Positions 26,268 through 32,224 of a stretch of DNA of 61,806 bases are shown here, one piece after another. Numbering within the stretch: the stretch's first letter is position 1; each line of letters starts with the position of its first letter. Source of the DNA: an uncultured Gemmatimonadota bacterium (GTDB lineage: Bacteria > GCA-2686955). A program made the translations under genes and the position numbers. The DNA is taken from the NCBI GenBank assembly GCA_964490075.1, contig CAZBBK010000034.1, positions 1 through 61,806 on the forward strand, written 5' to 3'. Below the pieces are notes generated by a model. That model was not told the DNA's origin. It did not search any database and was given only the letters and a program-made list of their open reading frames with translations.

Positions 26268-27386
26268 CTAACGAATTTCGATCGGAATGTACGCCGCGTT
26301 GTTAGATTCGGTGACTTCATCGACCGAATCGCCGTCGTCGATGATCACACCCAGGTGGCGATCGCCGGGCGACATCCACGGAATGGTGATGGTCTCGTTG
26401 TGAGTCCAGACCGTGTTGCGGCCGACGGTCAGCTCCGCTTCGGCGATGCGCCAATCCGAGCTCGAGATGGTGTTGTTGGTGGAGATGTAGAAGCCGATAT
26501 CGACGGTCTGCGTGGAACGACCGTTGTTCTCGTAGCTGAACTGCACGCGCACTCTCTGGTCGCGCCAGTAGCGATTGATGATGTAACGCTTTTCTCCGTT
26601 TGGCTCCAGCTCGAAGGGGAGCTCGGTGCCGCTGGTGTAGCTCAGGATCGTGCGGCCGTGGGTGGCGGATTCGTACTCGCTGGACCAGTCGGGTGAGCAG
26701 GATATGTCCCAGCCCAGTTCGGGCCAACGCATGCCGCTGCCGGTGCGCTTCCAGTGGGTCACCGCCAGATCATGCCCAGCGCCGCTCCACACGCCGTAGG
26801 CATCCGCGAGCCCGTCACAGGCATCCTCACCGGGACCCGTGCGATAGGTGTTTCCGTTCAAATAGAGGTGCCGCTCCGGATCGCCCAACACGTTGTAGGT
26901 GTCGGTCTCGTGCCTCATTCCCGTGCCGTGCACCAGCTCGTGCATCAGCTCCGCCCAGAACGAGAGTCCCGTGCCCTCGTACCCTTGCACGGCGAAGCGC
27001 GAGTCGGACGAGGTCCAGGGGTGGGCGGTGTTGAAGTAGATGTCGAGCTGCGTGGGCGACGAGTTGAAGAGCGGGGTCGTGATGCCGATCGGTGGTTCGT
27101 CCTCCTCTCCTGCGTAGAACCAGATCTCGTGCTGAGCGTTATTGAATCCGACATTGGTGTCGTTCATGGTCAGCCAGTACCAGAATTCGCTCGGGTTGTT
27201 GTTGAAGCGGATCATCGATCGTTCGAGCACTTCGGTGTAGGCGTTGCCGGGTGGGAAGCTGAGGGCCGCGGCACGCAGCCGCGGGTTGTAGGAGCCGGGC
27301 GCCCAGGTCCAGGAGAACTGATCGGCATGGGCCGCGGGGAGGTGGACGAGGACGAGCGCGGTCGCAACAATGGTAAGGTGTCTCAT
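26268..27386 (-). CDS. Secreted zincin metalloprotease with CARDB-like C-terminal domain
   Basis: Signal peptide; HELVHGTGMRH; C-terminal VDEVTESNN. Confidence 0.8.
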   Translation of the reverse strand: MRHLTIVATALVLVHLPAAHADQFSWTWAPGSYNPRLRAAALSFPPGNAYTEVLERSMIRFNNNPSEFWYWLTMNDTNVGFNNAQHEIWFYAGEEDEPPIGITTPLFNSSPTQLDIYFNTAHPWTSSDSRFAVQGYEGTGLSFWAELMHELVHGTGMRHETDTYNVLGDPERHLYLNGNTYRTGPGEDACDGLADAYGVWSGAGHDLAVTHWKRTGSGMRWPELGWDISCSPDWSSEYESATHGRTILSYTSGTELPFELEPNGEKRYIINRYWRDQRVRVQFSYENNGRSTQTVDIGFYISTNNTISSSDWRIAEAELTVGRNTVWTHNETITIPWMSPGDRHLGVIIDDGDSVDEVTESNNAAYIPIEIR

Positions 27387-28264
27387 CGGCCTTGCTCCTT
27401 GTTGGCCAGGCGCTGCGCCGGCAGAACGGGATTGCCACCATTGGCGCGGATCAGAGCCAGCTCGGGATCCTCCTGGCCGTTGGGCGGCGGCGGCAGAAAT
27501 AGCTGCTCTCGAGGTGGTGGCGCCGGCCGATCGAGCAACGACGGAAAGGGACGGCCGGGATTGGCGCTCGCCACGACCGGAAGTGCCGCCAGCTCGGCGG
27601 GGGTGTGGACGGTTTCGACGGCACGATCGATGGCGGCGGCCAGGTCGCTCAAGGAGAGTGTTGTCCGCTGGGCCTGTTCTTCGTCGCAGGTCCGCTCGCT
27701 CGACGCCATTGTGCCGTGCACACAGTCGTCGCGGTGGCGGTAGCGCAGTCGATCGTCGGAGTCGAGGGAGAGCACTTCTCCGCGGTCGTCGAAGACCCCG
27801 CCCTCGATCACCCGCATGCGTCCTTGACTCCAGCCGACCAATGGGACCGCGCGCCGGCAGTTCTTGCGCACGAAGAGCAGATCCTGGTCGCCGACCTCGA
27901 AGGAGGGAACGCCCGAGACGTGGAAGTCGATGCCCTCGTCGGTGAGACCGCCGGGGAAGCGCAGCGTCAGCTCGGATCCGGCGGCGCGGCCCTTGAAGAG
28001 CTCGTCGATCCGGTAGGTGACGAAGGTGTGGGGCACCGGCGGGCGCGCGGGGTTGTCGGAATGGGAGCCGGCCTCCTCGATCGCGTCGACGACGCCCAGG
28101 AAGACGATGTCGGAAGCGCCGACCTTGCGCTCCAGCGAGGCGTGGTCGAAGAGCGGCGCGGCGTGGGCGCCGGAAGCGAGGGCCAGGGGCACGGCCAGCG
28201 GCCCGAGGCGGCCAACGAGGAGCCGCCACATAGCGGGTGAGCGGACGGTCATGGGTCTCTCCAC
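27383..28264 (-). CDS. Secreted OB/TIMP-like protein coupled to the zincin
   Basis: SDIVFLGVV..TFVTYRIDELFKG..FPGG..GVPSFEVGDQDLLF; ATGA overlap; start uncertain. Confidence 0.65.
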   Translation of the reverse strand: MERPMTVRSPAMWRLLVGRLGPLAVPLALASGAHAAPLFDHASLERKVGASDIVFLGVVDAIEEAGSHSDNPARPPVPHTFVTYRIDELFKGRAAGSELTLRFPGGLTDEGIDFHVSGVPSFEVGDQDLLFVRKNCRRAVPLVGWSQGRMRVIEGGVFDDRGEVLSLDSDDRLRYRHRDDCVHGTMASSERTCDEEQAQRTTLSLSDLAAAIDRAVETVHTPAELAALPVVASANPGRPFPSLLDRPAPPPREQLFLPPPPNGQEDPELALIRANGGNPVLPAQRLANKEQGR

Positions 28265-28384: not shown

Positions 28385-30853
28385 CTACCTCCCCCCCACC
28401 TCGCAGACCCACACCACCTGCCGCCCCGGACTGAAGACCCCTGAGCCGTGTTCCTTGTAGGCCCGATCCCAGAGGTTGGCGAAGGTCAGCGTCAGATCGA
28501 TGCCCGCCAGGCGCTCTCGGAAGCGCAGGTTCCAGTCCGACCAGGCGTCGGTTCCGCCGGGGTCGATCCGGGAGTCGGCGCGGTCGCCGGAAGAGAGACG
28601 GCGCTGGGCGGCCGCCGCACGCACGAAGAGCTCCACCGCGCGCCCCTCGCGGCTCCAGGCGATCCCGCACAGTCCCATCAAGGGCGGGATGCGGCGCATC
28701 GGCTCGGCGTCGGTGAGGTTCTGCCCGTGGCTGTAAGACAGGTTGCCGCGCAGTCGCCAGCTTCCGCTCAGACTCCATGCGGCCGCCAATTCCCCGCCCA
28801 CGATCCGCGCCCGTCCGGCGTTGGTCTTCACCTCGATCGGCGGCTCGCCGGGGTCGGGCTCTCCATCTCCGTCGCTGTCCCAAAACGGCAGTCCCAGATA
28901 GCTGCCGGGACGCTCGACGATCAGGTCGTGGAGATCGGTACGGTACAGGAATGCCTCGAGCCCACCGCCCTCCGCCGTGCGGCGCAGACCGATCTCGACA
29001 TTGACGCTGGTCTCCGGGCGCAGGCCAGGGCTCGGGGCGTCGACTCCGGAATTGGTTGCCTTGAGCGCCACTGTGTCATTGAAGTTGGGAGCGCGAAAAC
29101 CCCACGCCAGCGATGCCAAAAGGTCCCAACCGCCGCCGATCCCCCGGCGGAGCGCGGCACTTCCGGTCCACGGCGCGAAATGAGCTCGGTAACGCCCGAA
29201 GGGCTGCTCGAGCGGAGCGTCGAGGAAGATCCAACTGTTGCGGAGGCCCAGAGACAGCTCGCCGGCGCCGCCGGTGTCGAGATCGGTTGTCACGAACGCG
29301 CCACCGGCATCGGACCGAGAGCCGTCGGGATAGGCCGGGCGGACTTCGGATGAGACATCATTTTGGACTTCGCTAGTTCCCATCCACGAATGCAGGTCTG
29401 CGGCTGCCGGAGCGCGACGGGCCCAGCTGCAAGGCGGCGAAGCCGAAGGAATAGCAGGGCTATTTCGAGGTTTCGCCAACGCAGCAGATGGGTCCGTCCC
29501 GCCCGGCAGACGCGGGGCTGCATTCGTGGATGGGGACTCGCTACGGCGGCTGGCCAGACGGTCGCTGTAGTGCTCGATGCCCCACCTCAGAGCCAGGCTC
29601 TGGCGCGGGCGGGAGGTCGCCTGAAGCAGCAGACCCGCGGTGGCGATCCGATCGTCGTCCACCTGCAACAGATCGGAATCGGTGCGTCGCAGCTCCCGGC
29701 CCTCGCGCTCGAGCTGCACAGAAACGTTGCACTGCAGCTGATCGAGCCAATCCGCCGCGCCCCAGTGGTCGTACTGCGCCATGGCCAGGTAGCGCTCCTG
29801 CGGATCGTACACATAGCGCTCGAACTCCCCCGAGCTGTACTGGTCGTAGCGCGGCACCTCGCTCTGGCGCAGCGCCAGCAGATCGGCGCGCAGCAGGCGG
29901 CCGGGGGCCGGACGCAAGGCGGAGATGGCATGGACACCGAACTCGCGGTAGCCAGTCGGCACCTGGGTCGGGACTCGTCCTCCGGGATCGAGGTCGCCGC
30001 TGCGGCGCAGCGTGGCACCGATGCGGGAGGCCGCGCGTGGTCCCGACAGATCGATCCCCGCGTGTGCGGAGCGCCCCTGGTCGGCCGATGTGTAGCGCAG
30101 GCGCAGGCGCGGCTCGATCCGGGGAGCGGCGCTGAAGGGAGGCGGACTGCTGATCATGTTGACCACGCCGCCGATCGCGTCCGATCCGTAGAGCACCGAT
30201 CCGGGTCCGTGGGCGACCTCGATACGCTCCAGCGCATCGGCGTCGATGGTGCTCATGTACTGGTTGCCGCCGGGGCGGAAGGTCGGCCGATTGAGGCGCA
30301 CGCCGTTGTAGGCGAGCAGCACCTGTTTGCCGATCAGTCCGCGGACGATCGGAGCGCCGTGGCCGGCCGTGGTCTTCTGCACCAGCACGCCGGGCAGCTC
30401 GCGCAGCGCATCGGCGGTGCTGCCTCCCGGGCGCGCCGCCAGCTCCCGCGCGCCGGCCACCGAGACCGCGCCACGCTGCCGCTGCCGCGACTCGGCGCGC
30501 CGCGACGCGGTCACCGTCACGCCGCCGAGATCGAGCGCGCGCGGCATCAGCGCAATCTCCAGTCGCAGCGTCTCGTCGGCCCCGCCTCGCAGCGCTCGAC
30601 CCCGCGCCTGGTAGCCGACATGGGTGGCGATCAGCGAGTCCCGCAGCGCCCCGCTCAGCTCGATCACGAAGCGACCGGCGGCGTCGCTGGAGGCGCCGGC
30701 ACCCCCCTCGGCCAGGTAGACGTTCGCGGCCGGAATCGGCAGCCCGGTGCGCGCGTCCTCGACCCTGCCCTCGATCAGCGTGCCCCGCGCCGCGCCGCAC
30801 AGGAGCACCGCGACCACCGTCTGGGCGCGCATCTTGGGGCGCGGTCGAAGCAT
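28385..30853 (-). CDS. TonB-dependent receptor with N-terminal carboxypeptidase-regulatory-like domain
   Basis: GRVEDARTGLPIPAANV; plug IEVAHGPGSVLYGSDAIGGVVN; GFRAPN; NLWDRAY..PGR; 56-aa insert. Confidence 0.9.
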   Translation of the reverse strand: MLRPRPKMRAQTVVAVLLCGAARGTLIEGRVEDARTGLPIPAANVYLAEGGAGASSDAAGRFVIELSGALRDSLIATHVGYQARGRALRGGADETLRLEIALMPRALDLGGVTVTASRRAESRQRQRGAVSVAGARELAARPGGSTADALRELPGVLVQKTTAGHGAPIVRGLIGKQVLLAYNGVRLNRPTFRPGGNQYMSTIDADALERIEVAHGPGSVLYGSDAIGGVVNMISSPPPFSAAPRIEPRLRLRYTSADQGRSAHAGIDLSGPRAASRIGATLRRSGDLDPGGRVPTQVPTGYREFGVHAISALRPAPGRLLRADLLALRQSEVPRYDQYSSGEFERYVYDPQERYLAMAQYDHWGAADWLDQLQCNVSVQLEREGRELRRTDSDLLQVDDDRIATAGLLLQATSRPRQSLALRWGIEHYSDRLASRRSESPSTNAAPRLPGGTDPSAALAKPRNSPAIPSASPPCSWARRAPAAADLHSWMGTSEVQNDVSSEVRPAYPDGSRSDAGGAFVTTDLDTGGAGELSLGLRNSWIFLDAPLEQPFGRYRAHFAPWTGSAALRRGIGGGWDLLASLAWGFRAPNFNDTVALKATNSGVDAPSPGLRPETSVNVEIGLRRTAEGGGLEAFLYRTDLHDLIVERPGSYLGLPFWDSDGDGEPDPGEPPIEVKTNAGRARIVGGELAAAWSLSGSWRLRGNLSYSHGQNLTDAEPMRRIPPLMGLCGIAWSREGRAVELFVRAAAAQRRLSSGDRADSRIDPGGTDAWSDWNLRFRERLAGIDLTLTFANLWDRAYKEHGSGVFSPGRQVVWVCEVGGR
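29373..29540. repeat. 168-bp palindromic element inserted in frame in the TonB receptor
   Basis: 23-bp TIRs (2 mismatches) CTAGTTCCCATCCACGAATGCAG / CTGCATTCGTGGATGGGGACTCG; core shared with the 11734 element. Confidence 0.85.
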
Positions 30854-30934: not shown

Positions 30935-32224
30935 ATGCTGGAACGATGGTTCGGTCTCGAAGAGCAGGGCACAAAGGTGCGCACCGAGGTCCTGGCGGGC
31001 CTGACCACCTTTCTGACCATGCTCTACATCGTGTTCGTCAATCCGACGATTCTGGCGGAGGCGGGCATGGATCAGGGCGCGGTGTTCGTCGCCACCTGCC
31101 TGGCCGCCGCCATCGGCACCCTGATCATGGGGCTGGTCGCCAACTACCCGATCGCCCTGGCGCCCGGCATGGGACTCAACGCCTACTTCGCCTATCACGT
31201 GGTGCTGGGGATGGGGCATTCGTGGCAGGCCGCTCTGGGCGCGGTCTTCATCTCGGGCTGCATCTTCGTCGTGCTCTCGGTCTTGAAGGTACGGGAGTGG
31301 CTGATCGACGCCATCCCCGCCTCGCTGAAGCTGGCGACCTCGACCGGAATCGGGCTCTTGCTGGCGGTGCTGGCCCTGCAATCGTCCGGGGTGATCGCCG
31401 ACTCTCCGGTGACCCTGGTGACGCTCGGAAACCTCGGCGAGCCGCGCACCATCCTGGCCTGTCTCGGCTTCATCCTGATCGTCGTGCTCGACGTGCGCCG
31501 GGTGCCCGGTGCCATCGTGATCGGCATCCTGACCGTGACCGCGGCCGCCGCGCTCCTCGGCCTGACCACCTTCCAGGGCGTCTTCGCCGCGCCGCCCTCC
31601 ATCGCCCCGACCTTCCTGGCGATGGACCTCCGCGCCGCCCTCGACATCGGCCTGGTCGGCATCGTCTTCGCCTTCCTCTTCGTCGACCTGCTCGACACCG
31701 CCGGCACCCTGGTGGGAGTGGCGCAGAACGCCGACATGCTCGACGAGCGCGGCCGACTCCCGGGCGTGGGACGGGCGCTGCTGGCCGACAGCTCGGCGAC
31801 GGTGGCCGGCGCGGCTCTGGGAACCTCGACCACCACCAGCTACATCGAGAGCGTGCTCGGGGTGCAGGCGGGCGGTCGCACCGGATTGACCGCGGTGGTC
31901 GTGGCGCTGCTCTTTCTGCTCGCGCTCTTCGTCGCGCCGCTGGCGCAGAGCGTGCCGACCTTCGCCTGCGCCCCCGCCCTGCTCTACGTCGCCTGCGCGA
32001 TGGCCAAGGGATTCGCGGCGATCGACTGGAGCGACGGCACCGAGGCCGCCCCCGCCCTGGTCACCGCCCTCGGCATCGCCCTCACCCTTTCCATCGCGAC
32101 CGGAATTGGGCTAGGATTCCTCGCCTATGCGGCGATCAAGCTGCTGACCGGACGCAGGCGCGACATCACCCCCGGGGTGGCGATCCTGAGCACGCTTTTC
32201 CTGGTCAAGTTCGCGGTGGCCTGA
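30935..32224 (+). CDS. NCS2/AzgA-family purine permease
   Basis: RTEVLAGLTTFLTM.YI.FVNP, ALAPGMGLNAYF, TSYIES..GGRTGLT. Confidence 0.95.
   Translation: MLERWFGLEEQGTKVRTEVLAGLTTFLTMLYIVFVNPTILAEAGMDQGAVFVATCLAAAIGTLIMGLVANYPIALAPGMGLNAYFAYHVVLGMGHSWQAALGAVFISGCIFVVLSVLKVREWLIDAIPASLKLATSTGIGLLLAVLALQSSGVIADSPVTLVTLGNLGEPRTILACLGFILIVVLDVRRVPGAIVIGILTVTAAAALLGLTTFQGVFAAPPSIAPTFLAMDLRAALDIGLVGIVFAFLFVDLLDTAGTLVGVAQNADMLDERGRLPGVGRALLADSSATVAGAALGTSTTTSYIESVLGVQAGGRTGLTAVVVALLFLLALFVAPLAQSVPTFACAPALLYVACAMAKGFAAIDWSDGTEAAPALVTALGIALTLSIATGIGLGFLAYAAIKLLTGRRRDITPGVAILSTLFLVKFAVA

Follow-up and report, generated by a model that had tools for sequence, protein, structure and literature searches.

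The stretch of DNA analyzed here, referred to as the window, comprises 61,806 nt of contig CAZBBK010000034.1 from assembly GCA_964490075.1 of an uncultured Gemmatimonadota bacterium, and its minus strand carries at 28385-30832 a gene for a TonB-dependent receptor of 815 amino acids plus stop that is otherwise intact but has a palindromic mobile element lodged within it. The element is 162 nt long (29376-29537, plus strand, the strand that folds better) and belongs to a group of foldback hairpins that we name family A and consider to be MITEs (miniature transposable elements with inverted repeats). It is bounded by a 6-bp direct repeat, TCGCTA, on the left (29370-29375) and on the right (29538-29543), which we read as a target-site duplication. 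Its terminal inverted-repeat arms, of which the left begins GTTCCCATCCACGAATGCAG..., lie at 29376-29410 and 29503-29537, and an apex core of about 38 nt (29438-29475, plus strand) has, by sequence comparison, about 90% identity to a second set of MITEs, family B, discussed below. The 162-nt element together with one 6-bp repeat adds 168 nt to the gene, that is, 56 codons (29375-29542, minus strand) that specify residues 431-486 of the 815 (SESPSTN...HSWMGT). A preliminary description of this DNA had noted the direct repeat, which on the coding strand reads TAGCGA, with its units 168 nt apart from start to start, as well as the 56 stop-free codons, and we find both as described, the receptor open reading frame (ORF) running through the element without a stop.

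Between the repeats lies an imperfect palindrome whose outer arms (29372-29410 and 29503-29541, 39 nt each) are 85% complementary. The coding-strand RNA of the element region folds with -113.9 kcal/mol (z = -9.0), and none of 200 shuffled sequences was equally stable; for the 162-nt element alone, the plus strand gives -126.8 kcal/mol as compared to -104.9 kcal/mol for its complement. The size is within the range of prokaryotic MITEs (about 50-500 bp), and 162 nt leave no room for a transposase gene, the open frames of the element coding for 56-58 residues only. A scan of positions 29000-29900 found no promoter or terminator, and a search of Rfam returned no matching family for family A, nor for family B, the sole hits for the two families together being microRNA or mraW models at E values of about 0.4.

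The receptor itself has Pfam matches to Plug (5e-22), the TonB barrel (2e-21) and, at the N-terminus, the carboxypeptidase-regulatory-like domain CarboxypepD_reg, and it has the N-terminal plug followed by a 22-strand beta barrel by which TonB-dependent transporters are recognized. The preliminary description predicted that orthologs would show a gap of 56 amino acids here, and this is what the alignments returned. Among 40 other genomes the best orthologs, the proteins of G019 (57% and 56% identity) and G004 (35% and 33%), align in two pieces, with 60 and 67 residues skipped in the query as against only 4 and 13 codons in the subject. A scan of 1.84 billion proteins gave a like picture: of its 150 top representatives, 149 match in two stretches broken at the insert, and the remaining one is a fragment of 439 amino acids. 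None of 59 aligned homologs has the segment, and taking it out makes the receptor exactly colinear with them; 50 of its 56 columns are empty in all of them, and the first six are occupied only because the gap, owing to the repeat, can be placed in more than one way. When 168 nt are removed the sequence reads ...LASRR-SEVQNDVSSEVRPAYPDGS and the spacing between the conserved motifs xD and PDGS becomes 25 residues, as it is in P0003, P0004 and the proteins of G019 and G004. The earlier statement on the removal of one unit stands, and because the restored loop length equals that of the four nearest homologs, one TCGCTA must be the gene's own, which makes for a net gain of exactly 168 nt.

The junctions are covered by contigs from four runs of one marine-metagenome study. 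The left junction is spanned by contigs of three to four separate runs (28800-29399, 28832-29437 and 29096-29405), and the right junction by others (29514-30100, 29428-30100 and 29533-29694), each reaching from flanking sequence into the element. The 815-amino-acid call is the same in two public assemblies, and P0002, the protein of the second assembly, contains the insert with one residue changed. It might be supposed that mis-assembly of a metagenome bin has misplaced a repeat into the gene, and assemblers do seem to jump between identical copies: P0021, a protein of 534 amino acids that falls in the 90% cluster of the receptor, follows the receptor up to and across the element, continues in the sequence that flanks a copy in a RES-domain gene, and is most likely an assembly chimera across two identical copies and less likely a real recombinant. 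With both junctions crossed by contigs, the left one in separate runs, and with the protein recovered from two independent assemblies, we regard such an artefact as scarcely credible.

The source assembly, a marine metagenome-assembled genome of 5.70 Mb in 136 contigs with 68% G+C, contains seven full-length copies of family A, one on each of seven contigs, together with a 50-nt solo right end. Their identities to the window element, which is itself one of the seven, are 100, 100, 99, 98, 96, 96 and 87%, and the flanks differ among all of them; the presence of seven near-identical full copies across the genome means that the element is more than a chance palindrome. All seven have the terminus GTTCCC(A/G)TCCACGAATGCAG at both ends, and in six it is directly followed on the outside by 6-bp direct repeats, five of these pairs being perfect and the sixth differing at one base. 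The flanking pairs are TCGCTA/TCGCTA in four copies, TTGCTA/TTGCTA in the copy on contig C71 and TCGTTG/TCGTTA in that on C1, and the oldest copy still matches at four of the six repeat positions. As both flanking 6-mers change together, they are best read, on the sequences at hand, as the duplication of a preferred target site that is nearly palindromic. Alternatively, the ends might be drawn differently, with a shorter duplication and some of the bases borne by the element; the added unit is 168 nt either way. Six of the seven copies add 168 nt and the seventh adds 183 nt, which is a multiple of 3 too. An insertion of the IS200/IS605 type (IS, insertion sequence), beside a fixed target and without duplication, was also considered and is less likely, given that the flanking 6-mers co-vary in the copies on C71 and C1 and that the inverted repeats are true ones. 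Four of the five MITE hallmarks examined are seen here: the size, the inverted repeats, a target duplication that varies between copies and dispersed copies. Judged by its sequence, family A is a previously undescribed MITE family; the full element is absent from the four other species genomes of this phylum in the collection (five in total).

The preliminary description went further and proposed a domestication of the kind known for the Rickettsia palindromic elements (RPEs), its argument being that one end of the palindrome, expected to read CTAG, had mutated to CTCG and thereby escaped an in-frame stop. The letters at 29537-29540 are indeed CTCG, and CTAG at this place would be an in-frame TAG. 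The argument drawn from them does not survive comparison with the other copies. The right TCGCTA, which contains the CTCG, is a direct repeat and lies outside the inverted repeat, the CTAG on the left being formed by the left repeat with the first base of the element; a search for inverted repeats reaches into TCGCTA because this 6-mer matches its own reverse complement at four of six positions. CTCG occurs in five of the seven copies, some of them intergenic and one of them the copy with 100% identity to that of the receptor, and a sixth has CTTG. It is a feature of the family or the target and not a local change.

Nor is the openness of the frame in itself evidence that selection has kept it so. 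Four of the six reading frames through the element are without a stop. Of the two that are closed, one is impossible inside a gene because the target would itself read TAG, and in the other a TAG is formed at the left junction, which leaves five feasible combinations of frame and orientation for a TCGCTA site in a gene, four of them open. This preponderance might be taken as a sign that the peptide is useful, or that family A as a whole may be pre-adapted for coding insertions in the manner of RPEs. When 20,000 sequences of matching composition were simulated, at least four open frames arose with a probability of 0.057 (Markov model) or 0.136 (palindromic model), which is not unusual, and the unit is a multiple of 3; the open frame needs no local selection. 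A coding-friendly design extending over the wider superfamily was considered and rejected, as the related family B has units of 182-184 nt, not a multiple of 3, and more stops, with most of its frames closed.

The other six copies show where the element has been tolerated. The copy on C3 (168196-168369, minus strand; L002 1501-1674) is 100% identical to that of the window and lies in a RES-domain (NAD+ phosphorylase toxin) gene, in frame and stop-free, in the opposite orientation and in a different frame with respect to its gene. It adds 56 residues, 22 residues ahead of the C-terminus of the RES protein, that are found in none of ten aligned homologs, and the duplicated TCGCTA codes there for a Ser-Leu that aligns with a conserved Ser-Leu of the homologs. 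Two further copies coincide exactly with TAG stop codons, the final TA of the target being followed there by G. That on C24 (12885-13058; L005), on the stop of a DUF2064 gene, has kept the stop, and that on C1 (115834-116007; L006), on the stop of a gene for a FlgD_ig/sorting-domain protein, has lost it, since its left repeat now reads TCGTTG, with a gain of 29 element-encoded residues. The copies on C11, C71 and C12 are intergenic, one of the three lying between AddB-like and AddA-like genes. The oldest copy, that on C12 (29434-29614; L007; 87% identity; unit of 183 nt), is distinguished by 15 additional nt inserted at its apex, and its right arm is fully complementary to its left arm, the mismatched right arm being common to the six younger copies. 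Genome-wide, two copies are mid-gene and in frame, two are on stop codons and three are intergenic, and the two mid-gene copies, in the receptor and RES genes, are the youngest and identical to each other, the older ones being intergenic or on stop codons. This pattern fits a short life for mid-gene copies; seven copies are too few for a test.

With regard to the receptor protein, an AlphaFold model built on a 60-sequence alignment (predicted local distance difference test, pLDDT, 87.6; predicted template modelling score, pTM, 0.83) places 22 barrel strands behind the plug. The nearest solved folds are OprC (Foldseek E value 2e-36) and then PhuR, ChuA/ShuA and Cir. The insert falls between strand 9 (residues 413-434) and strand 10 (505-521), and residues 443-491 have a pLDDT below 50. 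The polypeptide of a TonB-dependent transporter, in the established topology, enters its barrel on the periplasmic side, and the connections from odd to even strands are the extracellular loops. Every even-to-odd connection in the model is a turn of 2-5 residues, and, since the insert lies in an odd-to-even connection, it is placed by the model in an extracellular loop, as the preliminary description had anticipated. In the model the insert, predicted to be a disordered stretch, lengthens this loop (the fifth by our own count) from about 15 to about 71 residues.

It is conceivable that the peptide has been kept by selection as a surface loop, for instance one in which an epitope for phages or bacteriocins is altered while transport is retained. 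Besides the predicted position of the insert and the open frames described above, such a domestication would have in its favor that two of seven copies are internal, in frame and open, and that the insert is present in all assemblies and runs covering the site. To be weighed against these are the 100% identity of the receptor copy to another copy, which leaves no time for selection specific to this locus, the different frames of the receptor and RES insertions, owing to which they share no peptide, and the predicted disorder of the insert. Furthermore, the peptide encoded in the receptor frame was found only in the receptor's own cluster when the clusters of a 5.8-billion-sequence protein collection were searched, and in no other. 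We therefore think domestication improbable: of the RPE-like case put forward in the preliminary description, the palindromic mobile element sitting in frame in a TonB receptor holds good, and the part that called for selection is not supported.

A more serious competitor is that the gene has been silenced although its frame is open, that is, that it is dead or strongly down-regulated and the copy too recent for decay to be visible. This might come about through cleavage of the mRNA at the duplex, through stalling of ribosomes, or because a 71-residue loop blocks assembly of the barrel. The insertion is very recent, as its identity to another copy attests, the mRNA hairpin amounts to about -105 to -114 kcal/mol, and the mid-gene copies are the youngest, as would be expected if they were short-lived. 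On the other hand, the extracellular loops of these transporters differ widely in length among the aligned homologs, plug and barrel are confidently predicted in the model, no terminator-like site lies in or beside the element, and the rest of the receptor gene is without defect. We consider a silent knock-out unlikely on balance, though clearly the strongest of the alternatives.

The preliminary description also proposed an excision of the hairpin from DNA or RNA. Its removal before translation, either from the DNA of some cells of the population by slippage between the 6-bp repeats, which the palindrome would promote, or from the RNA, would yield the normal receptor and make the insertion a reversible switch. 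Studies of the precise excision of transposons have established a long palindrome between short direct repeats as the classic substrate, and the architecture at this locus is of that kind, with a very stable hairpin. However, no contig joining the two flanks without the element was found in the four DNA runs (weak evidence, as contigs drop rare variants), the older family A copies have persisted long enough to accumulate 1-13% divergence, and we know of no bacterial mechanism by which such a hairpin is spliced from mRNA with re-ligation. Removal before translation seems to us a very remote prospect.

In our assessment, the locus is quite probably the product of a recent insertion of a family A MITE at a TCGCTA site in the receptor gene, with duplication of 6 bp and a gain of 56 codons, the element being a passenger. 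The sequence of events might have been as follows. The element would have been mobilized in trans by a DDE-type transposase recognizing the family A termini and would have inserted into the TCGCTA of the receptor gene, duplicating the target and enlarging the gene by 168 nt. The frame presumably stayed open owing to the fixed multiple-of-3 length and the G+C-rich, stop-poor sequence of the element, and survivorship would have done the rest, gene-breaking copies being lost, so that the open frame would not stem from selection at the receptor locus. Most likely the receptor continues to be produced, carrying a 56-residue stretch of predicted disorder in a surface loop, and the peptide is probably a passenger, neutral or slightly detrimental, and not a part that has been domesticated.

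Several observations sit less comfortably with this account. The insertion is deduced from homologs of at most 61% identity, the empty-site allele not having been recovered, and every sample covering the site has the insert, as would be the case for a beneficial insertion that has become fixed. Four copies are flanked by the same 6-mer, which calls for either a strong target preference or the other reading of the ends, in which the duplication would be shorter than 6 bp. The assembly contains no transposase gene with family A termini, so mobilization in trans is something that we infer. Finally, neither the open frame nor the confidence of the barrel model establishes that the protein folds, is exported or transports a substrate, and an mRNA hairpin of about -105 kcal/mol could lower expression.

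Family B is a second and larger set of hairpin MITEs, about 180 nt long, with members in the source genome and in two from a sister genus (G002 and G003, where its loci are among L043-L066). Its loci in the source genome are on contigs C100 (9417-9595), C29, C4, C1 (108286-108464 and 51531-51710), C9, C40, C65, C5, C43, C44 and C81. The two families have in common 38 nt at the element center, at about 90% identity, along with neighboring motifs. The family B termini, which begin GGGTC(G/C)GCG, are unrelated to those of family A, and its 3-bp duplication varies between copies, both sides matching in 14 of 20. For family B a likely autonomous partner can be named, as judged by matching ends: its first 17-20 nt match those of an IS630-family element of 1.13 kb on C1 (14694-15826; L067 195-1327) with a 342-amino-acid DDE_3/helix-turn-helix (HTH) transposase. 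This element was considered as a partner of family A as well and set aside, as its ends are of the family B type; a DDE_3 fragment at the end of contig C5 was likewise rejected, having no matching terminus. Short forms with family B termini (88-98 nt) are present at C27 12470-12567, C35 25299-25396, C56 28641-28738 and C69 1991-2078; that on C27, the sole one read, is missing the core, and the one arm left to it stands in reverse order with respect to the long form.

Contig C10, from about position 110704 on, and contig C93, from about 14790 on, end in a terminus that is related to that of family A, matching it at 16 of 19 bases, and in one instance is preceded by TAGCGA. About 52 nt of this terminal element are assembled before the contig ends, with a sequence that diverges past the terminus, and no continuation was found elsewhere in the source assembly. 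These contig ends probably represent a longer relative that was not assembled, and possibly, to go by the terminus, the autonomous partner of family A. An exact 35-nt scan of the metagenome collection gave no match, and degenerate patterns of the terminus gave one chance match each in the genome and metagenome collections, in coding sequence and with no element there; such pattern scans of the collections may leave out the window's own records.

Of all the features described, only the shared core is out of the ordinary for a MITE. Over 20 family B copies from three genomes, 96.8% of the cells in 76 predicted stem pairs are paired and 30 of the 76 pairs are altered on both sides, and none of 500 shuffles reaches any of five measures. 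In all seven family A and all twelve family B copies of the source genome one strand folds better than the other, by 10-41 kcal/mol, because G-U pairs are kept on the better strand; tandem G-A and conserved G-U pairs are confined to that strand. The receptor mRNA corresponds to the weaker-folding strand and the RES mRNA to the stronger-folding one. The strand bias hints at a single-stranded role, as RNA or DNA, for the core, and the unrelated termini of the two families imply that presumably different transposases move one common hairpin core. It might be speculated that the core is not purely selfish but a mobile module, of structured RNA or of single-strand DNA, that serves some function in its own right, and that the 168-nt unit of family A, with four of five feasible frames open, would allow it to travel within genes and to remodel receptor surface loops and toxin ends, reversibly by excision at the 6-bp repeats; we offer this as a long shot.

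The receptor gene is followed on the same strand by an ORF of 653 amino acids with a C-terminal CARDB domain (26268-28229, minus strand), and the ORF preceding it (31195-31836, minus strand; 213 amino acids) has a very high third-position G+C and no Pfam match. The neighboring genes in the window provide no pointer to the substrate of the receptor.

What the locus offers, then, is a clean case outside Rickettsia of a hairpin MITE that adds a peptide to proteins, with two examples in one genome from identical copies, one in the surface loop of a receptor and the other in the C-terminal part of a RES toxin. It illustrates that in-frame insertion can arise without selection for the peptide, from a multiple-of-3 unit, a stop-poor, G+C-rich sequence and the loss of gene-breaking copies, and it cautions against reading an open frame as domestication. 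For a barely sampled phylum, two MITE families and an IS630-type partner are new entries in the catalogue of mobile elements, and the insert-bearing loop would lend itself naturally to testing the amount of additional sequence that such a loop can accommodate.

Among known systems the closest counterpart is that of the RPEs. A 2024 review calls in-frame fusion of a MITE with a gene 'not unusual', RPEs being the most pronounced example, and gives these as about 150 bp long with 44 insertions in R. conorii, nearly half of the insertions from three families lying inside ORFs (PMC10969869). An RPE peptide is reported to be compatible with the fold of the host protein (PMC10969869; PMC3184786). Bacterial MITEs are described as lying occasionally inside genes or extending gene ends (PMC10969869; PMC5896051), and a 2011 review lists internal, 5' and 3' gene fusions for RPE, RUP, BOX and others (PMC3184786). 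A full-text search of the open-access literature yielded no paper describing an in-frame MITE in a TonB-dependent receptor. The receptor insertion is real, if of an ordinary type that works like the in-frame insertions of RPEs or Correia elements, and nothing indicates that the cell makes use of the added peptide.

Family A resembles RPEs in being a palindromic repeat of the order of 100-170 nt that lies in frame and stop-free in coding genes and adds a peptide, and, in the receptor, in occupying what the model suggests is a structurally permissive site, a disordered loop between strands 9 and 10. It differs in that RPE insertions with a conserved peptide number dozens, whereas family A has seven copies, of which two lie in genes, each in a different frame; the hallmark of RPEs, that a single conserved peptide recurs in many unrelated proteins, is not seen here. 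Family A has, moreover, clear terminal inverted repeats and a 6-bp flanking duplication, and its host is an uncultured marine lineage of an unrelated phylum; no relationship in sequence is to be expected.

In size, inverted repeats, duplication, copies and the lack of a transposase, family A is like the Correia/NEMIS, ERIC, BOX, RUP, QMITE1 and Anabaena MITEs. As compared to these, it is a new sequence family in which the whole element, and not the ends alone, forms one hairpin, and its duplication is of 6 bp at a near-palindromic, TCGCTA-like site, whereas Correia and IS630-type elements duplicate TA. With the IS630-family element and family B it shares the core and neighboring motifs but neither the termini nor the length of the duplication (6 versus 3 bp). 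The repetitive extragenic palindromes (REPs), the bacterial interspersed mosaic elements (BIMEs) and the palindromic elements derived from IS200/IS605 are repeated extragenic palindromes that fold on one strand, and family A is strand-biased too; REPs are 20-40 nt long and strictly extragenic, family A is 162 nt long with two of seven copies in genes, and IS200/IS605-type elements are without the terminal inverted repeats and target duplication that family A has.

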